Source of the DNA: Candidatus Kryptoniota bacterium
GTDB taxonomy: Bacteria > Bacteroidota > Ignavibacteria > Kryptoniales > JAKASW01
Length of the DNA stretch: 64,000 nt
Direction of reading: 5' to 3'
NCBI GenBank assembly: GCA_046706745.1
Contig: JBJKPC010000054.1
Coordinates: forward strand, 15,759 to 79,758
Shown: one piece after another, positions 1 through 62,242 of the stretch
How positions within the stretch are numbered: the first letter of the stretch is position 1
Layout: each line of letters starts with the position of its first letter
Program-made: the position numbers and the translations under genes
Notes under the pieces: model-generated
The model's database searches: none
The model's input: only the letters and a program-made list of their open reading frames with translations
What the model was told of the DNA's origin: nothing

Positions 1-279
1 GAGATATTCATGTGAAGGTCTCGCGTAACAGTAGATGCAGCCGTGCTCGCACCCCCTATAGGGGTTCAGACTGTATGTGAAGGGGATGTCCGGGCTGTCG
101 TTCTTCGCGAGAATCGTCTTCGAAGTATCCAGAAAGTACTTCGTCTCTATTCTGTTTCGATCCCGGTCCTCGTCTGGAAAGAATCGGTCATCTTCCTCCG
201 AAGGAACGACGTCGAGCTCTATAAACCGGTTCTTCGGATTGAATCCCGAGCTCCTCCCGCTGACTTTGGGGCCTGCCAA
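1..279 (-). CDS. Radical SAM protein, PA0069-like (5' part only; gene continues past left edge)
   Basis: Edge-truncated and absent from the ORF track. Minus-strand frame reads [23 protein letters not shown]...[38 protein letters not shown], with the CxxxCxxC radical-SAM cluster motif. An in-frame TGA at 289-291 leaves TTG 277-279 as the only possible start; GAGGAGGAG lies just upstream. Confidence 0.7.
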
Positions 280-349
280 AGCTCCTCCTCACTTCTCACC
301 TGCCGGACGCGGCCTTCAAAGCGCCGGCTGCGTCTCGCATGACTAATGG

Positions 350-1756
350 TCAGTAACCGGTACCCAAATATTGTTGCCAGTTGCCGTTGTGAATCTCATT
401 TCTCGCCGTCGAGTTGACCAGCGTGTAATCTCCGAATCCTGTCCTGTCGACGAAGTCGAAGCTGACTCCTCCCTGAATCGAGTTGTAGTACCATATCTCG
501 TAAGGCTTGGAACTGGATTCATTGGGATGACTCTCGACCTGGTCGGGCTTTCCGTATGTTATGTAGATCCTTCCCCTGTCGGTCTTCCAGCCGGGCGTAG
601 CCCCCACCCTGAAATGGTCATTAGCATACGCAACTCTTTGCAAGTAATCGATCCTGTACTTGTTTGTACTCATAACCGGATCAGGATTCCGCTTCTGCCA
701 GAAGTCAAAGAGAAACTGACGCTTAGCCGGAAGGCTGTGCAATTGGCCGAACTCCTCCTTTTCCCTCGAGGTCGCAATGTAGCGGGCTTCCTCGAACTCT
801 CGGTCGATCTCCTGCAATCCCATGCTCGCAAAGACAGTTGACAGCATTGACGCGCCCAGGCGGCTGCTTCCGGGATTTTCGGGAGCACCCAGGCCCGGGT
901 TGTAGACGAAGAATCTGCGCGAAGACCGCGCATATTCGTTCGCGACAGAATCTACGATCGTAAGGAGAAATGTATACGAACCGGTCTTCAGATCTGATCC
1001 GTTGACAGTCCCAACCTCGACGCTTGTGTCGCCGAATTTTCTCTTTCTTATCGTCCTCGATTTCAGTACCTGTCCGAAACTATCCCTGACTTCGGACTCT
1101 ACCGTAAAGACACTGTCCCTGGCCGAGTCCGGAATGTTATAGACCTCTGCGTAATAGAAAATAATCGGAAGTCCGGCCCCGTAGACTTCCCTCGCATTGG
1201 GAATGACATTGTATGTGTTCTTGTAAAAGATCCCATGTGGTCCGGACCCTGCCTCTGTAATGTTCGAGCACAGCTCGATGTCGCTGACCTGCAGTTTCTT
1301 GAAAGAGTATGCAGGTACGGTTATATGTCCGACAACACTGTCCACGCTGATACTGTTGTTGTGATCTGTCGCCTCGACCCGCATCAGATAGTTCCCAGGT
1401 CTCACTGCAAGCCCGATTTGGCCGACAAACGCCTGATTGAGGTCGGCAGCGGTCGTATCATGAGCGGCAACCGGAACTGCCCAGGATTGGCCTAAGGCGT
1501 TGGAGTCGCTGCCGGTTTCTTCAAGCTTGATGTTGAACATAAGAGAGTCCACGTAAAGAGAATCGCTCTTCACTAACTTCAAACCCGCCAGGCTGAAATT
1601 GTAATATAACTCCATGAACGATTTGGAAGTGTCGTAGCGAAAGGTCGAGAAATCGAAGTTCACGTCAAGGTTTTGAGAGTGCGCCGGGCTCACGACGCAC
1701 GCCGTGGCCGCGACACAAGCGGCGAGAAAGGTCCAGAATGTTCGTCTCTTTTTCAT
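350..1756 (-). CDS. GWxTD domain-containing secreted protein
   Basis: C-terminal 'GATPGWKTDRGRIYITYGKPDQVESHP...YEIWYY' matches the GWxTD signature. Start moved to ATG 1756, which gives a signal peptide (MKKRRTFWTFLAACVAATACVVSPAHS); the ORF-track start at 1900 is an upstream extension. Confidence 0.8.
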   Translation of the reverse strand: MKKRRTFWTFLAACVAATACVVSPAHSQNLDVNFDFSTFRYDTSKSFMELYYNFSLAGLKLVKSDSLYVDSLMFNIKLEETGSDSNALGQSWAVPVAAHDTTAADLNQAFVGQIGLAVRPGNYLMRVEATDHNNSISVDSVVGHITVPAYSFKKLQVSDIELCSNITEAGSGPHGIFYKNTYNVIPNAREVYGAGLPIIFYYAEVYNIPDSARDSVFTVESEVRDSFGQVLKSRTIRKRKFGDTSVEVGTVNGSDLKTGSYTFLLTIVDSVANEYARSSRRFFVYNPGLGAPENPGSSRLGASMLSTVFASMGLQEIDREFEEARYIATSREKEEFGQLHSLPAKRQFLFDFWQKRNPDPVMSTNKYRIDYLQRVAYANDHFRVGATPGWKTDRGRIYITYGKPDQVESHPNESSSKPYEIWYYNSIQGGVSFDFVDRTGFGDYTLVNSTARNEIHNGNWQQYLGTGY

Positions 1757-55034: not shown

Positions 55035-55496
55035 TCAGTTTCCCTGTACCCGTAGTAGAGTAGCCCTGAGATCGGTTATCTCTCGTTCCTTCGTTTCGAG
55101 TTGGCTGTACAGGTCCACCAGATGATCGTAGAATTGGTCCTCGAGAAATCGCAATCCGGATATATCTTCAAGTTGAAAAACCATTTGGCGTTTGCAGTGC
55201 TTGAGCTTATACGCCCTTACTCTATAAAATCTGGCGGTTCCTTTCTGCTTCACAGTGCAAACGCTTTCTCCCCGGAGTCTGCATTCCGATACAACTCTTT
55301 GAAAGGTCCCCGAATCCTCGCCCTCGAGAAACCCTTCAACCTGTAATCTCTTTCCATACTCGAGAGTGATTGGGAGCACATCCCTTGAGGCTTGATTCGC
55401 ATAGGTGATCACCAGATTAGGTCCAGTGAGTATCAGCGGCACCCGCAGATCCTCACAAATCCTTTGAAAATCAGATATTATTTCGTTTGAGTCCAC
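55035..55496 (-). CDS. Stand-alone PAS-like sensor protein with C-terminal coiled coil
   Basis: 'PLILTGPNLVITYANQASRDVL...FYRVRAYKL...MVFQLEDISG' is PAS-like; tail 'LYSQLETKEREITDLRATLLRV'. GTG start. Confidence 0.5.
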   Translation of the reverse strand: MDSNEIISDFQRICEDLRVPLILTGPNLVITYANQASRDVLPITLEYGKRLQVEGFLEGEDSGTFQRVVSECRLRGESVCTVKQKGTARFYRVRAYKLKHCKRQMVFQLEDISGLRFLEDQFYDHLVDLYSQLETKEREITDLRATLLRVQGN

Positions 55497-55651: not shown

Positions 55652-56011
55652 CTAATTTCCCAGATAGTCTACTTCGACGCTGGAGACGCCGTCCAGCTGG
55701 CTGGCGGTAAATGTCTTGACTTGCCCTTCATGAAGTTTGTATTCCGCCGGTGCTCCTCCCTTCGTGTCGAGTTGCACCAACACATTACCCGGGCTTGTTA
55801 AGGTGACCGCCGGTACTACCGAGGTCCGATTAATACCGGGAACGGGAGCCGGTGATGCTTTCATCTTCGGCGAGGCAAAGCTGATCCCCGGCGCAGGAAT
55901 CACCGTCAGCCTTACCGTTGCGGTGGCTGTAACTTGTGCCTGGGTGGGAGAGGCCAAAAACAAGTACCCGATCGCTGCAAGAAATAGTGCTATGTACTTC
56001 TGGTTTCTCAT
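55652..56011 (-). CDS. Small secreted beta-rich protein, possible minor fibre subunit
   Basis: Signal peptide MRNQKYIALFLAAIGYLFLASPTQAQ. Mature 'VTATATVRLTVIPAPGISF...' ends '...SSVEVDYLGN*', resembling the termini of the two upstream subunit genes. Confidence 0.45.
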   Translation of the reverse strand: MRNQKYIALFLAAIGYLFLASPTQAQVTATATVRLTVIPAPGISFASPKMKASPAPVPGINRTSVVPAVTLTSPGNVLVQLDTKGGAPAEYKLHEGQVKTFTASQLDGVSSVEVDYLGN

Positions 56012-56233: not shown

Positions 56234-59200
56234 CTAAGGCAGAGAGATAATCCGGGCCGATGGGTATTCTCCATAAGACCTGATCTTACCCATGGCTGTC
56301 CAAGCCTCTTTCTCCGTACTAAATGTCGGAGTAAATGCTCTGAACTTTAGCCTCTCACAGTCAAAACCAACCAACGCAAGGATTCCTGTTCTCAAGCGAA
56401 AGTCCAGTGCGAACGACCGTGCCTGGCGTTCATGGTCGAATTCAGCCAGCTCGATCGTATAGCGACGAGGAAGGTTCGATTCTCCGTCTATTACTACAAA
56501 TGCGCGGCGAAAACCATGTTCCAGCTCCAGTTTATCAAGGGCCCGAGTGGCTGCCTCATCATTCTTGAACGGTCCTGCCATTACCGAGAAAAGATTTGTC
56601 GATCGTCTGAACCGAACGCTCAAACGTAGATCCGTCTCTTTCAAATTCCTCCGGACGAATTGGCTGGCTTGATCGACCGATGCAAACGCTGCGATCTGTA
56701 CCCAGTATATGTAGCGGGCATGGGGCCTTGTCGTCGAATTGACAAAAGCGTCGAAAAATCCGAACTCATCGATGAAGATAGTGAGCCGCTGAAGGGCCGT
56801 TTGTCTGCTGTCAAACGTGTCGGTCTGTACGACGAAGAGGCCCAACTGCTTGGAGGGCCGTGCCATCAGAATCTGGCCCGTCATGATCCTTGCTCTTTTT
56901 GCCAGGACTTCCGCTCGCTTCCGGGAAACGAACGCTCCGATTTGCACGACATATTTTTCAAGAGGCCGATAGATCTTTCCGGAGCTTTCTTTCAGTTTAC
57001 GCGGAGGAGTCCTCTTTTCAATTTGCTTTAGAATTATCTTGAGGCCTTCCACGAAATCCCCGTTCTTCGTCGGCTTGATGTTGAAATTCAAGATCGCAGG
57101 ATCCGCATATACTCCGAGGACCGAGAGCTGTGTCGAGTCCACGTACGCCTCATACTCTCCCGGTTGCAATCCCATGTAGTAGAAGCTTCCGTCGTTGAAA
57201 ACAGAAACGCTTGTTGTCCTGCCGGTCGATTTGGATTTGATATATAGAGTCAGTCCGGGTACAGACGTCATCTTCGTGCCGGCAAGGCGGAGAACCTTGC
57301 CCTCAACTATCCCCCCGACGAAGAACGGCACGTCGATCCTCTTGTATGAATTGGGATCTGTAATGAACGAGAACGACCTCAGCTTCGGGATCCACAATGG
57401 GTTCCTGATCGAGCTGAGGTCCACATCGGCGCTGTACTGCGTATAAGGAAGAAGATTCCAGTCCCTGATAATCCCATCGGAAGAAGTCTCGCTAGCGACG
57501 GCCTGTCTGAGCGTTACCTCTCCATTCTTAATTATCTCTTCCCCTTTATCGTATTTCCCGTTGCCATTCGCGTCAACGAACATTCTGATCGATGCGGCGG
57601 AGCGCCCGACCCAGGGCAAATTGTTGAATAGAAAGGTCTTATAGTTGCTGTCATACCCTATCGACCCGCTTAAATTCTCGGTATAATATCCCGCGCCGTT
57701 TCGAACTTGAGCACCCGTGGTGGATCTGGTGAACGGAAGATCGGCAATGATCTGAAGGTTGAAAGTAGTCGCTCTATTTATATAGTCGCGTTCTGCAGAA
57801 AAACCTATCCTTATATACCTTAGTACGTTTCGCGAGAGCTGGAACGATATGTCGTCCAGCGAGTTCTTGAGCACACCGTATCTTCCGGTGGCGTTCACAA
57901 GGGTACCGTTCAGAAATTCAAACGGCCCCTGCCCAAAGAACATCGAATAGAGCACTGAGGCGGAGAGCGTATAGTTGTCTACTACATTCGAGTGACCGTA
58001 GTCGATGATGGATTTAAGATAGCCGATCGTTGCGTTTAGCTGGGAAACGCTTGTGGATAAATATGCCGAGTAGTTGTATGCCTTCTGACCAAGAGAGTAT
58101 TCCTGCGCATTACCTGTCGCCCTGAAATTGAAGCTGCTGCCTCCAAGGGAGAACGGAACATACAGGTCTGCCTGTCCCTCCTGAATCTTGAGACTTGGAT
58201 TGTAAAGAAGATTTTCCCGATAACGTGAATACGACAGATCGAAAGCTGCCTGAGAAGCATATAGGGCGCTGAACGTCGATCTGTAAAATGCGAGAGGAGC
58301 CGCGTCGAAACTTATTGTATACTGCGGTCCCAAACGGAGGTATAGGGAATTGTAAAAAAGTGGCTTCGAGAAGTACGGGTTGTCGACATAGTCCACGCCC
58401 ACTTTATCGCTCAGCCAGCTGGTAAAACCGTAAATTACGTTTGCGGACAGGAAATTATAGTTGGTATTGTTCAATTTGCCGCCGCCGACGGTATAGTTCA
58501 CTTCTCCCGCGGGCACAAAGGAAAAAGGGATCTGGAGTCTCCTGTCCACTTCGTTGAATTGGCCGTTGGGACCATAATACTTCAGCTGAATGAATGAAGT
58601 TCCGTAAACCAGCGGGATCGAGAACTGTGCGCGTCCCTGTTTGTCCGCCTTCTTGTAGCCTACAAGCTGCCCGTTCAGGTAAAGTTCGACATCCCAGCCG
58701 GGATTTGTGCTGGCGTGCACAATGTACTGACTGAAAAGCGTTCTGACGGTAAGCGGTTCGTTGGAAACTTGCGCTCCGCGAAAGCCAAATTGTGTCAGAC
58801 CGTTCGAATAGAGATTGCCCAGGCCAGCGTATGTTATGTAGGAGGTGGAGTCGAAAGCATACTTCCAGCTCAGGTCGCTCGAATAGATCTTTGAACCCGC
58901 TCCCGTTGAGGTTCCCAGAAGACTTCCTTCGGTTTCACCGCCGAGGACCTCGCCTCCGCCGGTGAATTGATAAGTGTAAGCAGACTGGTTCCCTCCTGTG
59001 TATGCCGAGAGCGAGTAATCCAGGATCCCCCCGTCCAGCAGATGCCGATGTCGCGGGAATGCGAGCGGCGCCTGAATCAGGTTCAATTCCGGAGAAACCA
59101 CCATGTAGTTCCTCCGTGTTTGTCTCCGATAGTCCTGGAGCACAGGGAGTTCCTTCTGTGTGTTGAGAGCAAGTGAAAGGGAATTGAAATCTACCGTGAA

Positions 59201-59635
59201 ACTGAGTCCGAAGATCGTTTTGAAAAATGAGGGGAGGGCATAGAAATCCAGTGGTCCGATGATGACCTTTGCCGTATCGAATCTGATTCTTCTCCCGCCG
59301 ATCTCGGCAATTCCTTTACTGAAATCTATATCGTACTTATCCGACGCCCTTATGTAAAACCCTTTCAGGGTCTTTGCCCGCATATCGGCAGTCTCGTCTA
59401 TCCTCAGTTGTTTAAAGACCGCCCCGATCGGTATGTATACGGAGTCGCGATAATAATACGCCGTTATGACGGAGTTCACCAGGCCGCTATAACTGAAAGA
59501 GAGAAAAATCTCCTGCTTATTTGAACTCGGGGGAATATCCTGCGCCCACCCTGATGAGGCAAACACGACGACAAGAATCGCAGTCAAAAGAGATTTTTGT
59601 GCGCAGATAAGTAACTCCCGCGTGTTTCTATTCAC
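56234..59635 (-). CDS. Usher-like outer-membrane protein fused to three C-terminal SPOR repeats
   Basis: Signal peptide ...VVFASSGWAQ. About 800 aa of Y/G/S/N-rich alternating beta pattern. Plug-like insert 'WDVELYLNGQLVGYKKADKQGRAQFSIPLVYGTSFIQLKYYGPNGQFNEV'. Two Ig/CarboxypepD_reg-like modules ('IRMFVDANGNGKYDKGEE', 'GIVEGKVLRL...NDGSFYYMGLQPGEYEAYV'). The last 241 aa are 3 SPOR-like repeats. Confidence 0.55.
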   Translation of the reverse strand: MNRNTRELLICAQKSLLTAILVVVFASSGWAQDIPPSSNKQEIFLSFSYSGLVNSVITAYYYRDSVYIPIGAVFKQLRIDETADMRAKTLKGFYIRASDKYDIDFSKGIAEIGGRRIRFDTAKVIIGPLDFYALPSFFKTIFGLSFTVDFNSLSLALNTQKELPVLQDYRRQTRRNYMVVSPELNLIQAPLAFPRHRHLLDGGILDYSLSAYTGGNQSAYTYQFTGGGEVLGGETEGSLLGTSTGAGSKIYSSDLSWKYAFDSTSYITYAGLGNLYSNGLTQFGFRGAQVSNEPLTVRTLFSQYIVHASTNPGWDVELYLNGQLVGYKKADKQGRAQFSIPLVYGTSFIQLKYYGPNGQFNEVDRRLQIPFSFVPAGEVNYTVGGGKLNNTNYNFLSANVIYGFTSWLSDKVGVDYVDNPYFSKPLFYNSLYLRLGPQYTISFDAAPLAFYRSTFSALYASQAAFDLSYSRYRENLLYNPSLKIQEGQADLYVPFSLGGSSFNFRATGNAQEYSLGQKAYNYSAYLSTSVSQLNATIGYLKSIIDYGHSNVVDNYTLSASVLYSMFFGQGPFEFLNGTLVNATGRYGVLKNSLDDISFQLSRNVLRYIRIGFSAERDYINRATTFNLQIIADLPFTRSTTGAQVRNGAGYYTENLSGSIGYDSNYKTFLFNNLPWVGRSAASIRMFVDANGNGKYDKGEEIIKNGEVTLRQAVASETSSDGIIRDWNLLPYTQYSADVDLSSIRNPLWIPKLRSFSFITDPNSYKRIDVPFFVGGIVEGKVLRLAGTKMTSVPGLTLYIKSKSTGRTTSVSVFNDGSFYYMGLQPGEYEAYVDSTQLSVLGVYADPAILNFNIKPTKNGDFVEGLKIILKQIEKRTPPRKLKESSGKIYRPLEKYVVQIGAFVSRKRAEVLAKRARIMTGQILMARPSKQLGLFVVQTDTFDSRQTALQRLTIFIDEFGFFDAFVNSTTRPHARYIYWVQIAAFASVDQASQFVRRNLKETDLRLSVRFRRSTNLFSVMAGPFKNDEAATRALDKLELEHGFRRAFVVIDGESNLPRRYTIELAEFDHERQARSFALDFRLRTGILALVGFDCERLKFRAFTPTFSTEKEAWTAMGKIRSYGEYPSARIISLP

Positions 59636-59687: not shown

Positions 59688-60509
59688 TCAATTTATACTG
59701 AAAGTCATCGACTTGGTTACCGTCGGGACTTTCAACAAGTCCTCAGCAGGTATGTCGCTCCTGTCGGATTCGAGCTTGACCTCAGCAGTATACGTCCCGC
59801 CGTGAAGGTCCGAAAGCGGTATCGCAAATCTTACCACCATGCTGCTCGGGTAGATGGCAAGCACTTCCTGACTGGAGTAGATCGTGCTGCCTGCCGCATT
59901 CTTCACGATTGCATTCATCTTGCCGAAGAACGGCGAGTTCCCTCCGCGTGACACATAAGCGAGCAGGTTCATAGATGCAGAATCCGGAACCGCATGCAAC
60001 CGGGGAATCTCAACGCTCGTATTAACATAGCCTTTCTTGTACAGCACAGTCGTCACCTGTCTGAGGACGAAGGTGATGTTAGCGGTTATGCCTGTTCTAA
60101 CCGTGTCGATGGTTTTGGCCTGCGGGGTTGAACTGGTGATCAATCTCGTCCAGTACTCGCCCTCCGGGATATCGGGAGGAGGGGACACCAGCAGTCTAAC
60201 CGTCTGTTGTTTACCGGGATCGATTATGAATTTCTGCGGAAACCCTCTCAGCCACTGCTGGCAGGAGTGCTCACGAGCCATCAAGCTATCGTCGTACTGC
60301 ATCCGGACATTCCCGACAGAGTCGGATTCCGGGAACCCAAACCTGAATGATATGCTGATCTCCTGAGGCGTGTCTGACCGGTTCATCACGACAAATGTCC
60401 CGAACGGTGACTGGTTGCTCATGAAAAGGATCGTAGGAGCAACGACAACTTGGGCCCGGGACACAGCTACAAAAGACAGGATCAACAACGCGGATAAGAT
60501 CTTCTTCAT
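59688..60509 (-). CDS. Periplasmic two-Ig-domain protein, PapD-like chaperone candidate
   Basis: Signal peptide MKKILSALLILSFVAVSRAQ. 'VVVAPTILFMSNQSPFGTFVVMNRSDTPQEISI' and 'FPQKFIIDPGKQQTVRLLVSPPPDIPEGEYWTRL' follow the chaperone N-domain pattern. A second beta-rich domain follows. Confidence 0.5.
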   Translation of the reverse strand: MKKILSALLILSFVAVSRAQVVVAPTILFMSNQSPFGTFVVMNRSDTPQEISISFRFGFPESDSVGNVRMQYDDSLMAREHSCQQWLRGFPQKFIIDPGKQQTVRLLVSPPPDIPEGEYWTRLITSSTPQAKTIDTVRTGITANITFVLRQVTTVLYKKGYVNTSVEIPRLHAVPDSASMNLLAYVSRGGNSPFFGKMNAIVKNAAGSTIYSSQEVLAIYPSSMVVRFAIPLSDLHGGTYTAEVKLESDRSDIPAEDLLKVPTVTKSMTFSIN

Positions 60510-60548: not shown

Positions 60549-61481
60549 TCAGTAGTTTACTGTCAGGGTAAATGTGCCCGAATAGTTGCCCGGCGCCTGA
60601 TTTGGTGGAACAGGGTCGAGTGACCCACCAAGCCAGAAATAGTAATATCCGGTCGACTGGCGATTTCCGCTCAAGCGAACTCTTTGGCCGGAAGAAATTG
60701 CGGTCGCCCCCGCCTGGTTGGTCGGAATGTCTGTCCCGCTTACACTGGGAGTGAAAGTCAACGTGTTGCCGTGCGAATCGTCCAAGGATGTTGTCGCAGA
60801 GTATGTGACGGTTATGTGTTTGCCGCCGGAGCCAGCCGCCGTGATCTCCGGAGCCGAGCCGCTCTGGGGACTCAATGAGGGAGGCGTTGTACCCGCAACA
60901 ATTAACCCGAAATCCAGCGTACCCGTCGACATTAGCGTAAGCCCCTGGATCACGCTGGATGACAGACTTATGTCCTGACTGGTCTGAAATTGATTGAAAG
61001 GATAGAATGTCCAGACCATAGCATCCACATTGATGGTTCCAGTATAATCCCCCGACGCCTGATTGTTGCCCGGACTGACGGTTCCGCCGATCCATATATA
61101 GAGTGTCAAGGGAGCATTCGATCCTGTAAGAGTTTGATAGCCTGAGCTCGGATCAAAGACCGTGCTCCCGGAGAAACTGTTAGTGGTATTCCATGCGGCC
61201 GAATTTGTTCCAAACGAAACGGGGAGCGAGTAACCTCCCGAGATGAGGGCGGCGGGCAAATTGAAGGTAATGCGGTCGTAACCGTAGCCGCTATGACCGG
61301 GGAATTGGACCTCGATTTCAGCCGCGCCGGGATCGGAAGGTGCAATTGTGTTGCTCGTGCCGCTTATAACCATTCCGAGAGACATGTTCCTGAGAAGTGT
61401 GATGGTGGGTGTCTGCGCGCTGGATTTAACCGCGAAGAGCAGAAGGCAACCGGCAATCAGTATCATTCGTTTGTTCTTCAT
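60549..61481 (-). CDS. Secreted tandem (2x) DUF4402/SCPU-like subunit
   Basis: Signal peptide ...FAVKSSAQ. The first half ends 'ASGDYTGTINVDA'. The second half starts 'LTLMSTGTLDFGLIVAGT' and ends 'APGNYSGTFTLTVNY*'. Confidence 0.6.
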   Translation of the reverse strand: MKNKRMILIAGCLLLFAVKSSAQTPTITLLRNMSLGMVISGTSNTIAPSDPGAAEIEVQFPGHSGYGYDRITFNLPAALISGGYSLPVSFGTNSAAWNTTNSFSGSTVFDPSSGYQTLTGSNAPLTLYIWIGGTVSPGNNQASGDYTGTINVDAMVWTFYPFNQFQTSQDISLSSSVIQGLTLMSTGTLDFGLIVAGTTPPSLSPQSGSAPEITAAGSGGKHITVTYSATTSLDDSHGNTLTFTPSVSGTDIPTNQAGATAISSGQRVRLSGNRQSTGYYYFWLGGSLDPVPPNQAPGNYSGTFTLTVNY

Positions 61482-61738: not shown

Positions 61739-62242
61739 TCAGTTGTAGACTGCCGTCAGTGTAAAAGTGCCCGTGTACGTGCCGGCCGGTTCGGAACCGC
61801 CTAAGGTCACGTCGCCGCCGAGCAAGAAATAGAAATGACCGGTGCCGGTGGGGTATGTTCCGCTGAGCTTGTAAGCCGTTCCCGCCACGGCTGCAGTCCC
61901 CGCCGTTGTACCGTCGGTGCTTTCGACCAGGTTCACATCGAACGTTACGTTGTTCCCGCTTCCGTCGGAGAGCGTCACCGTACTCGGGAAGGCATTTAGC
62001 TCGAATGTCGCACCAGAAGTTCCGGAGACATCGAATTTAGCCCCCGCAGTCGGGGCAACTGGCGTAAGAGCACCGGTAGTTCCTGTCACGACGTTGCCGA
62101 AGTCGACGGCTCCCGTGACGTTCATCTGCATTCCCTCGAGCATCTGCAGGGAAATATTCGCAGAACCCTGCGCAGTTGTCTGTCCAAATGACAATGCAGC
62201 GGTGGTCAGCACGATCGCGCCAACGAGCATTAATTTCTTCAT
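61739..62242 (-). CDS. Secreted single-domain DUF4402/SCPU-like subunit (candidate major fibre subunit)
   Basis: Signal peptide MKKLMLVGAIVLTTAALSFGQ; 'VTGAVDFGNVVTGTTG', 'GHFYFLLGGDVTLGGSEPAGTYTGTFTLTAVYN*'. First gene of the operon; AGGAG lies 9 nt before the ATG. Confidence 0.65.
   Translation of the reverse strand: MKKLMLVGAIVLTTAALSFGQTTAQGSANISLQMLEGMQMNVTGAVDFGNVVTGTTGALTPVAPTAGAKFDVSGTSGATFELNAFPSTVTLSDGSGNNVTFDVNLVESTDGTTAGTAAVAGTAYKLSGTYPTGTGHFYFLLGGDVTLGGSEPAGTYTGTFTLTAVYN

Follow-up and report, generated by a model that had tools for sequence, protein, structure and literature searches.

A gene of a Candidatus Kryptoniota bacterium, found in a 64-kb window (the whole stretch of 64,000 nucleotides that was analysed), encodes a predicted outer-membrane usher that ends in three tandem SPOR units, here called usher-SPOR. 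The architecture and folds of this protein, the conservation of the fusion and of the operon around it, and the replacement of the tail by other peptidoglycan-binding modules in relatives are best explained overall by a divergent chaperone-usher-like fibre system of the FCB group whose usher would be tethered to the cell wall by its SPOR tail, and we consider this explanation probable. The fusion is not unique to one genome, and is common in a large FCB-group usher clade. As the preliminary description of this locus had stated, no usher with a peptidoglycan-binding extension seems to have been described: our literature searches returned no such paper, and nothing relevant on SPOR-tailed ushers or on chaperone-usher systems of Bacteroidota.

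Usher-SPOR Is Encoded by One Continuous Gene

Usher-SPOR is one continuous secreted protein, with a complete usher predicted in residues 1-871 (Table 1). The stretch 56234..56959 on the reverse strand, in which the SPOR repeats had been noticed, corresponds to the final 241 codons and the stop of this reading frame, and orthologs align with the protein from residues 1-3 onward at the N-terminus. The same architecture could arise artificially if an usher gene and a separate SPOR gene had been joined by a chimeric assembly, a frameshift or an overlooked stop. This explanation is refuted by the uninterrupted reading frame, by an independent Logan assembly that yields the same gene call and an identical 1133-residue product, and by the three-unit architecture found in most relatives of at least 50% identity, which come from many assemblies. 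The AlphaFold2 (AF2) model, with its defined linker between folded domains, also speaks against an artefact, to which we assign practically no probability; the absence of a frameshift or missed stop in the preliminary description thus holds.

Table 1. Features of the usher-SPOR locus, in window coordinates; domain limits within the protein are approximate where marked (~).
Feature	Position	Strand	Residues	Remarks
Candidate major subunit	61739..62242	-		167 aa, secreted; first gene of the cluster; DUF4402 32.3 bits
Candidate fibre subunit	60549..61481	-		310 aa, secreted; DUF4402 52.2 bits, in two stretches
Candidate PapD-like periplasmic chaperone	59688..60509	-		273 aa, secreted; directly upstream of the usher gene
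Usher-SPOR gene	56234..59635	-	1-1133	single 1133-aa reading frame plus stop; GTG start
Predicted signal peptide		-	1-31	ends in SSGWA, followed by QD; inferred by reading the sequence
Predicted usher NTD, periplasmic	59156..59515	-	~41-160	AF2 pLDDT ~90; limits from the DSSP string
Predicted translocation barrel	57623..59065	-	~191-671	24 long strands counted in DSSP
Predicted plug domain within barrel	58529..58738	-	~300-369	six short strands, inserted after barrel strand 6
Predicted CTD1, beta-sandwich	57362..57601	-	~679-758	AF2 model and Foldseek
Predicted CTD2, transthyretin/CarboxypepD_reg-like beta-sandwich	57023..57346	-	~764-871	AF2 model and Foldseek
Flexible linker, CTD2 to SPOR unit 1	56954..57022	-	872-894	23 residues; pLDDT <50 at 875-889
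SPOR unit 1	56735..56953	-	895-967	Q898 and F902 present
SPOR unit 2	56480..56713	-	975-1052	Q980 and F984 present; top-scoring unit
SPOR unit 3	56237..56464	-	1058-1133	SPOR fold, divergent; E1062 in place of Gln, F1066 present
Small secreted protein downstream of usher	55652..56011	-		119 aa; no family match
PAS-like protein	55035..55496	-		153 aa; weak PAS match (E 0.0028); last conserved gene on the strand

A Predicted Usher Precedes the SPOR Tail

The usher assignment of residues 1-871 is based on the predicted structure and on Pfam Usher matches in relatives. When the AF2 model of the protein (pLDDT 88.3) was compared to the PDB with Foldseek, the top 16 matches were all FimD or PapC (E 1e-31 to 3e-14), with approximately 900 aligned columns against the full-length ushers. 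Structures of the FimD/PapC translocation domain (3ohn, 2vqi, 3fip) were matched with E values of 1e-15 to 3e-14 and TMt of 0.51-0.61. The "usher-like barrel" of the preliminary description is borne out by these matches, and the predicted structure comprises the full set of an NTD, a 24-stranded plugged barrel, CTD1 and CTD2. Porin or LptD-type barrels were rejected as candidates, their Foldseek matches having E values of 1e-6 or worse versus 1e-31 for ushers.

At the sequence level, the Pfam Usher family (PF00577, gathering score 27.1 bits) was not matched by usher-SPOR even when E values up to 10 were allowed, and NCBIfam likewise gave no Usher match. Two relatives pass the Pfam threshold, P0052 (33.8 bits, 31% identical to the query) and P0136 (32.4 bits), with matches spanning the region equivalent to the plug region of usher-SPOR. 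Since these relatives pass and usher-SPOR itself does not, its membership in the Usher family by sequence is transitive only. A profile of 106 family sequences retrieved SdrD-type and SPOR matches among PDB sequences, and no usher. Aligned by hhalign to E. coli FimD, the family gave a weak match (probability 16%, E 0.0017) with a sensibly aligned plug region: within this weak alignment the plug falls on FimD residues 180-418, and an FRGAQ sequence stands opposite FimD's own FRGAQ. The motif 'FGFRGAQVSNEP' sits directly ahead of the plug domain. The two C-terminal domains showed a weak SdrD_B match (CTD1, 685-715) and a sub-threshold CarboxypepD_reg match (CTD2, 778-834), the latter above threshold in the relative P0101. 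No second usher paralog was found within the 64-kb window.

The model of usher-SPOR thus resembles FimD and PapC in its NTD, its barrel (read as 24 strands), the plug following strand 6, CTD1 and CTD2, and its gene adjoins genes for a candidate PapD-like chaperone and for small secreted candidate subunits. Yet the sequence identity to FimD/PapC is just 12-15%, CTD2 is larger and transthyretin/CarboxypepD_reg-like, the subunits belong to DUF4402 rather than to the Fimbrial/PapA type, and usher-SPOR carries a 260-residue periplasmic extension. To our knowledge, FimD and PapC have no such extension.

Three Tandem SPOR Units, the Third One Divergent

The preliminary description had read this extension as three tandem SPOR units, and folds, profile and Pfam agree with it, with the caveat that the third unit is divergent and has a Glu for the conserved Gln; the peptide strings it quoted are all found in the translation. 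Against Pfam SPOR (PF05036; gathering score 21 bits), the full-length protein reaches 76.3 bits (E 2.3e-21). Of the units taken alone, the Pfam check that had been proposed holds for the first (31.3 bits) and the second (49.9 bits) and fails for the third (13.3 bits, E 0.1). A profile seeded with unit 2 and iterated over 106 homolog tails recovers units 1, 2 and 3 at 73, 100 and 62 bits, respectively. Compared to shuffled sequences, pairwise local alignments relate unit 1 to unit 2 (24 of 71 positions identical, z 10.2), unit 1 to unit 3 (z 4.3) and unit 2 to unit 3 (z 3.1), and the family profile matches the CwlC and FtsN SPOR structures at the sequence level.

Each unit displays the RNP-like order beta-alpha-beta-beta-alpha-beta in the AF2 model as read by DSSP (residues 895-967, 975-1052 and 1058-1132). 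Modelled by itself, unit 3 reached a pLDDT of 94.4, and Foldseek placed the SPOR domain of CwlC on top (TM 0.80/0.82), with RlpA (0.65-0.72), DedD (0.67), FtsN (0.56) and DamX (0.54) also matched; non-SPOR ferredoxin-like folds stayed below a TM of 0.5. The glycan contacts of SPOR domains are a conserved Gln in beta1 (FtsN Q251, RlpA Q270) and the Phe that follows it (PMC6895207). Among 30 orthologs, this Gln is found in unit 1 of 28 and in unit 2 of 25, versus only 7 for unit 3. By its modelled fold, unit 3 is a divergent SPOR domain that lacks the conserved glycan-contact Gln.

The tail of usher-SPOR thus shares its domain family and fold with FtsN, DamX, DedD, RlpA and CwlC, and the glycan-contact Gln/Phe pair is conserved in its units 1 and 2. 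As far as is known, those proteins carry a single SPOR domain on an inner-membrane anchor, a lipoprotein or an enzyme. Usher-SPOR differs in having three tandem copies, predicted to lie below an outer-membrane beta-barrel, the third of them without the Gln.

A Conserved Operon with Candidate Chaperone and Subunits

Across 18 genome loci, and at paralogous loci as well, the gene order runs from subunits to the chaperone-like gene, the usher and a small reading frame; in all 18, the gene for the 273-residue chaperone-like protein adjoins the usher gene. Sub-threshold matches to PapD_N were obtained in 12 of 19 orthologs of this protein (best E 0.007), and several homologs bear the name "P pilus assembly chaperone PapD" in JGI and UniRef. 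Neither a profile of 19 homologs nor a later one of 36 significantly matched a solved chaperone in the PDB or FimC.

The 310-residue DUF4402 gene occupies a conserved position upstream of the chaperone-like gene, and related loci carry one to six DUF4402 paralogs upstream. A Pfam scan of the subunits with E values up to 10 returned DUF4402 and no match to SCPU (PF05229). As the DUF4402 profile found no solved relative, we infer fibre assembly from context. Downstream of the usher, the 119-residue protein is conserved in 12 of the 18 related loci, is also called with 119 residues in the independent assembly, and has its counterpart in a small reading frame after the usher gene of a related locus (L022). 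It matched no Pfam family, and its match to DUF4402 is confined to the signal peptide and first strand. Nine of the 18 loci have the PAS-like gene at the same place.

Acinetobacter Csu, an archaic (sigma-type) chaperone-usher system, has the gene order csuA/B-A-B-C-D-E. The present locus is similar in its succession of candidate subunits, candidate chaperone, usher and a further secreted protein, and in its occurrence in environmental, non-enteric phyla. It differs from Csu in that its subunits match DUF4402 and not SCPU, and in its downstream protein, whose 119 residues could not accommodate a two-domain tip adhesin.

This last difference bears on whether the locus makes a pilus at all. The usher-fold pore could instead build a non-fibrous surface coat of DUF4402 proteins, the wall anchor then serving a coat-assembly platform; the spore coat protein U of Myxococcus provides a precedent for a non-fibrous coat. 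Such a reading would fit a downstream gene that encodes only this small protein and no two-domain tip adhesin, and a DUF4402 family that has no characterised member or solved relative and for which we found no paper mentioning it. On the other hand, the usher domain set for donor-strand-exchange polymerisation is predicted to be complete, fibre operons typically combine several paralogous small subunits with a chaperone-like gene, as this locus does, and the products of archaic chaperone-usher systems are themselves thin fibres. We consider a coat improbable.

Tail Diversity across the Usher Family

The usher core defines a family of 799 clusters at E <= 1e-30, and the tails were surveyed in its 150 best representative clusters. 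At the C-terminal position we found SPOR in 48 clusters, OmpA-like domains in 11, LysM-like domains in 8, TPR in approximately 10 and nothing in approximately 60, tail types being confirmed on samples by Pfam. Approximately 44% of these 150 closest representative relatives thus carry one of three unrelated peptidoglycan-binding folds. The tail is an accessory module, since approximately 40% of the representative relatives have none. Among cultured bacteria, Algoriphagus aquatilis, Aquiflexum gelatinilyticum and Salegentibacter sp. 24 carry the core system in its bare form. Between the core and the first SPOR unit, homologs differ in spacing, with approximately 20 to 280 residues. The TPR tails of other relatives and paralogs are YbgF/CpoB-like or short, and have no direct peptidoglycan binding.

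These data bear on what the SPOR units do. It could be imagined that they work inside the machine, in chaperone-subunit docking, plug gating or glycan binding on fibre subunits, with no role at the peptidoglycan. The fold of unit 3, conserved in orthologs despite the loss of its Gln, would be consistent with this, as would the TPR tails of paralogs, which are protein-interaction modules. However, units 1 and 2 score above the Pfam SPOR threshold and keep their ligand-contact residues, the tail is joined to the usher by a flexible linker of variable length, and the replacement of SPOR by OmpA-like or LysM domains is hard to account for except through peptidoglycan binding; a role confined to the machine is accordingly very improbable. 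Anchoring of the usher to peptidoglycan is the most likely function of the SPOR tail.

A Proposed Wall-Anchored Fibre Machine

Based on these observations, we propose that bacteria of the FCB group (Kryptoniota, Bacteroidota and relatives) carry a fibre system in which DUF4402 proteins would be the subunits and the 273-residue protein the candidate chaperone. An even strand count (24 by DSSP reading) puts both barrel ends in the periplasm, to which the chaperone-docking NTD and CTDs must also be exposed, and the SPOR array is therefore expected below the pore: following CTD2 through a flexible linker of approximately 23 residues, it would hang under the pore and reach the sacculus. Units 1 and 2, with their intact Gln/Phe pair, would bind peptide-free ("denuded") glycan strands, while unit 3, with an intact fold, is probably a weak binder or a spacer. 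Binding would attach the usher to the wall, together with the fibre held in it, such that the load on the fibre is passed to the peptidoglycan and not borne by the outer membrane alone. Since septa and new poles are rich in denuded glycans, a SPOR tail may in addition bias the sites where ushers settle.

A comparable arrangement is found in the type IVa pilus secretin PilQ, whose AMIN domains bind peptidoglycan, bring the pilus machine to division sites and have been proposed as a force anchor (PMC5285504). The secretin of the type II secretion system is reported to be tethered to peptidoglycan via GspB/OutB (PMC9239104). Like usher-SPOR as predicted here, PilQ is an outer-membrane fibre pore with tandem periplasmic peptidoglycan-binding modules, whereas the usher is a monomer and not a multimeric secretin, its modules are SPOR and not AMIN domains, and they are C-terminal and not N-terminal. 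The likeness to PilQ is a functional analogy only.

Septal or polar targeting by the SPOR tail is possible, and the array might even be mainly spatial in function, capturing new ushers at the septum, where amidases expose denuded glycans, and thereby placing fibres at new poles. The YbgF/CpoB-like TPR tails of some paralogs point in this direction, CpoB being a Tol-Pal-associated division-site protein, as do the critical Gln and Phe residues intact in units 1 and 2. The SPOR domains characterised so far are reported to bind denuded glycans enriched at the septum (PMC6895207; bioRxiv 10.1101/2022.07.01.498525), and the AMIN domains of PilQ ensure that type IV pilus machines are already in place at future poles (PMC5285504). 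Against a mainly spatial role stands the finding that other members of the family have OmpA-like or LysM tails at the same position. Since the binding of OmpA-like domains to peptidoglycan shows no preference for the septum, attachment to the wall would seem to be the shared, selected property. That SPOR, OmpA-like and LysM modules replace one another at this position speaks more for general anchoring to the sacculus than for a strictly septal role, and we regard the mainly spatial function as the less likely one, though worth serious consideration.

Implications

We know of no description of chaperone-usher pilus ushers other than as free outer-membrane pores without a link to the cell wall. 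Usher-SPOR is a predicted complete usher that carries a putative wall-binding array and, together with the peptidoglycan-binding tails of its relatives, it suggests that in these bacteria selection has acted on the anchoring of the fibre pore to the wall, and possibly on its positioning. A bolder and doubtful extension of this view is that the FCB group harbours a large unrecognised clade of wall-anchored chaperone-usher machines with DUF4402 fibres, which have repeatedly gained SPOR, OmpA-like and LysM tails, and in which septal capture by the triple SPOR array would pre-install fibres at new poles. If the reading of septal capture were true, it would represent a way of positioning that no chaperone-usher system is known to have. 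Database names follow the tail only ("SPOR domain-containing protein", "cell division protein FtsN/DedD", "OmpA family protein", "TolA-binding protein"). Such names hide what is probably a pilus system of Kryptoniota, Bacteroidota and their relatives, the recognition of which gives DUF4402 proteins a candidate role.

A Predicted Usher With a C-Terminal SPOR Tail

The interval 56234-56959 on the reverse strand, which the preliminary description read as three SPOR repeats closing an usher-like barrel, holds the final 241 codons and the stop codon of one ORF (56234..59635, GTG start) encoding 1133 aa, and all three peptide strings quoted in that description are found in its translation. In an independent Logan assembly (run SRR31309758), gene calling gives a 1133-aa product identical to this one, and the same genes around it. 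Among 117 database homologs, with 0 to 5 SPOR units per member, a three-unit tail is common to most of those at least 50% identical to the protein, and close matches are named as Candidatus Kryptoniota/Kryptonia and "Bacteroidetes" MAGs. The ORF is continuous as first described, and an artefactual fusion through a missed stop or frameshift, ruled out by the independent assembly together with the three-unit relatives, is extremely improbable.

On the predicted structure, which is decisive here, the N-terminal 870 residues form a real usher. Low confidence in the AlphaFold2 model (106-sequence alignment, mean pLDDT 88.3) is limited to the signal-peptide region (residues 1-37) and residues 875-889. 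When the full model was searched with Foldseek, the 16 best matches were all FimD or PapC (E 1e-31 to 3e-14), with full-length FimD aligned over about 900 columns; other barrels (porins, LptD) came next, at E 1e-6 or worse against 1e-31 for ushers, and were rejected for the core. At the sequence level, Pfam Usher did not match the protein, no usher was among the PDB sequences matched by the family profile, and hhalign against E. coli FimD gave a weak alignment (E 0.0017) in which the query FGFRGAQ falls on FRGAQ of the FimD plug region. The Pfam Usher test is passed only transitively, via two relatives, P0052 (33.8 bits; gathering score 27.1), which is 31% identical and SPOR-tailed too, and P0136 (32.4 bits). 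Together with the Foldseek matches, these bear out the usher-like barrel initially proposed. The protein is therefore predicted by structure to be built, and to work, like FimD and PapC. In these ushers the N-terminal and C-terminal domains dock chaperone-subunit complexes in the periplasm, which by analogy would place the tail behind the second C-terminal domain in that compartment, the same as peptidoglycan.

Features of the usher gene cluster and domains of the predicted usher (nucleotide positions in the window; aa, residues of the usher)
Feature	Position	Strand	Remarks
167-aa DUF4402 protein	61739..62242	-	first in transcription order
310-aa protein, two DUF4402 domains	60549..61481	-	second
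273-aa secreted protein	59688..60509	-	third
1133-aa usher with SPOR tail	56234..59635	-	fourth
119-aa secreted protein, no family	55652..56011	-	fifth
153-aa PAS-like protein	55035..55496	-	sixth
Stem-loop	61655-61680	-	11-bp stem, 7 G-C pairs
Long ORF, 756 aa	52466-54736	+	downstream flank
Long ORF, 804 aa	49803-52217	-	downstream flank
Usher N-terminal domain	aa about 41-160		DSSP of model
Usher barrel	aa about 191-671		24 long strands counted in DSSP of model
Plug-position insert	aa about 300-369		six strands, after barrel strand 6; DSSP of model
Two C-terminal beta-sandwich domains	aa about 679-758 and 764-871		DSSP of model
SPOR unit 1	aa 895-967		Pfam SPOR 31.3 bits, above gathering score
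SPOR unit 2	aa 975-1052		Pfam SPOR 49.9 bits, above gathering score
SPOR unit 3	aa 1058-1132		Pfam SPOR 13.3 bits, E 0.1, below gathering score

Three SPOR Units, Two With an Intact Ligand Pair

The whole protein scores 76.3 bits (E 2.3e-21) against Pfam SPOR (PF05036). When the units were scanned one by one against the gathering score of 21 for this family, the first two of the three repeats originally claimed passed and the third did not. Starting from unit 2, a family SPOR profile was built up by iteration over the C-terminal tails of 106 members; it gave 73, 100 and 62 bits for units 1, 2 and 3. Units 1 and 2 share 24 of 71 aligned residues (z 10.2 against shuffled controls), and unit 3 aligns above shuffled controls with both unit 1 (z 4.3) and unit 2 (z 3.1); despite its sub-threshold Pfam score, sequence comparison thus identifies unit 3 as homologous to the others.

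In the AlphaFold2 model each unit follows a beta-alpha-beta-beta-alpha-beta order. Modelled alone (pLDDT 94.4) and searched against the PDB, unit 3 resembles the SPOR domains of CwlC (TM-score 0.80/0.82, rmsd 2.3 Å), RlpA (0.65-0.72), DedD (0.67), FtsN (0.56) and DamX (0.54), with other ferredoxin-like folds (PII, CutA, S6, NikR) below 0.5. By predicted fold, all three units are SPOR domains: units 1 and 2 belong to the family by every computational test run, unit 3 by fold and family profile only.

The sole highly conserved ligand contacts of SPOR domains are a strand-1 Gln (FtsN Q251, RlpA Q270) and a Phe at the fourth position after it (PMC6895207). This pair is intact in unit 1 (Q898/F902) and unit 2 (Q980/F984), the Gln being retained in 28/30 and 25/30 orthologous units, respectively, so that units 1 and 2 are probably competent glycan binders. 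Unit 3 has E1062/F1066 at these positions, where just 7 of 30 orthologs carry Gln, and we conclude from this replacement that it is probably a degenerate copy.

A Conserved Cluster of Putative Fibre Genes

The gene order is kept in 18 related genome loci (tblastn), in which the upstream DUF4402 paralogs number one to six. Even in SPOR-less relatives that are 27-30% identical (Algoriphagus aquatilis, Aquiflexum gelatinilyticum), the usher gene is adjoined by the 273-aa gene, whose product is a probable but unproven chaperone. PapD_N matches were sub-threshold only (12 of 19 orthologs, best E 0.007) and comparison with solved chaperones and FimC gave nothing significant, even with a 36-sequence profile; several homologs are named "P pilus assembly chaperone PapD" by JGI and UniRef. 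From their position and copy number we infer that the DUF4402 proteins are fibre subunits; no solved relative was found by profile, and no literature on DUF4402 in an incomplete coverage. That the system makes a coat instead of a fibre seems rather unlikely.

The mature N-terminus of the 119-aa protein, for which no family match was found, is strongly conserved (AQVTATATVTLTV); hydrophobic residues alternate along it, and it resembles an extension of the donor-strand type. Orthologs of the protein also share a C-terminal VEVxYLG. The PAS-like protein (E 0.0028, without signal peptide), whose gene immediately follows the cluster in 9 of 18 related loci, may be an operon-linked sensor or regulator. 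In classical fimbrial operons, a stem-loop behind the major pilin gene raises the ratio of major subunit to assembly genes, and the stem-loop in the 257-nt gap between the two DUF4402 genes could be such an attenuator. This stem-loop lacks a T-rich tail, and around it terminator-like matches are no commoner than in shuffles. The two long ORFs flanking the cluster downstream appear to be housekeeping genes and, from their translations by eye, look like a Lon-type protease (804 aa) and a malic enzyme (756 aa). GC content is about 0.50 and unchanged across the cluster, which thus bears no sign of recent horizontal acquisition.

Tails of Related Ushers and Their Possible Role

With the usher core (aa 1-892) as phmmer query, 1.84 billion representative proteins gave 799 clusters at E <= 1e-30 (2407 at E <= 1e-10), and we sorted the best 150 by architecture with local profiles. 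The fusion with SPOR is present in 48 of these 150 (1-5 copies, C-terminal), and is therefore a common architecture in a large usher clade of the FCB group, not peculiar to this genome. Other tails are OmpA-like (11), LysM-like (8, one carrying SPOR too), short and TPR-like (9, with a YbgF/CpoB-like TPR array in one further cluster) or unclassified (4), while 10 clusters have an N-terminal extension and about 60 no extension. Samples checked with Pfam confirm this, giving OmpA for P0101, P0120, P0219 and P0244 (56.6-74.4 bits), LysM for P0191 (34.8 bits) and P0231 (24.6; gathering score 20.9), with P0130 at 20.0, and TPR_6 with related families for P0068 and P0073.

One Kryptonia genome appears to hold two paralogous usher systems, as a contig of 4,567,335 bp seems to carry both the SPOR-tailed P0017 and P0073 (locus L021, 7001-10531), which has a YbgF/CpoB-like TPR tail, the JGI name "TolA-binding protein", and its own small upstream ORFs and 283-aa ORF. 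This TPR-tailed locus and an OmpA+SPOR locus both consist of small ORFs, then an ORF of ~280 aa, then the usher. In the latter (L022, 1-4022, Bacteroidales), a protein of >2450 aa with Gly_rich_2 lies directly upstream of the DUF4402 genes. The N-terminal extensions (115-640 residues, without C-terminal tail; e.g., P0139, P0173, P0212, P0213, P0215, P0188, P0248) match fn3 or Ig-like domains in some cases, and those of about 320 residues could stem from fusion to the chaperone-like gene upstream or from its read-through. Public names of P0019, P0099, P0067, P0070 and P0101 derive only from the tails ("cell division septation protein DedD," "cell division protein FtsN," "tol-pal system protein YbgF," "TolA-binding protein," "OmpA family protein") and are misleading for 1000-aa outer-membrane ushers.

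SPOR, OmpA-like and LysM modules are unrelated peptidoglycan-binding folds, and all three recur at this one site, after a flexible linker whose length varies. This is explained most simply by a tail that fastens the usher to the sacculus, a reading we consider fairly probable; a role unconnected with peptidoglycan is very unlikely. Pore and fibre would thereby be fixed to the wall and the load on the fibre transferred to peptidoglycan. A tail serving mainly to target the usher to septa or poles is possible, if less favoured: the glycans to which SPOR domains bind specifically are denuded ones, concentrated at septa and new poles (PMC6895207), and by analogy the AMIN domains of PilQ position type IV pili (PMC5285504), yet the OmpA-like variants point to attachment, not septal specificity, as the shared property. 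Besides being attached to the wall, SPOR-tailed ushers may, given where denuded glycans are enriched, also be biased in where they settle, and PilQ, whose AMIN domains are also a proposed force anchor of the secretin (PMC5285504), offers a parallel for both suggested roles.

Within an incomplete coverage of the literature, we found no usher described as extended by SPOR or any other peptidoglycan-binding module (the preliminary description likewise knew of none) and no account of chaperone-usher systems in Bacteroidota. Wall-binding modules are already familiar on other outer-membrane machines, so that the surprise is only moderate. The analysis nonetheless uncovers a sizeable unannotated usher clade, and with it a wall-anchoring hypothesis that is open to direct test.
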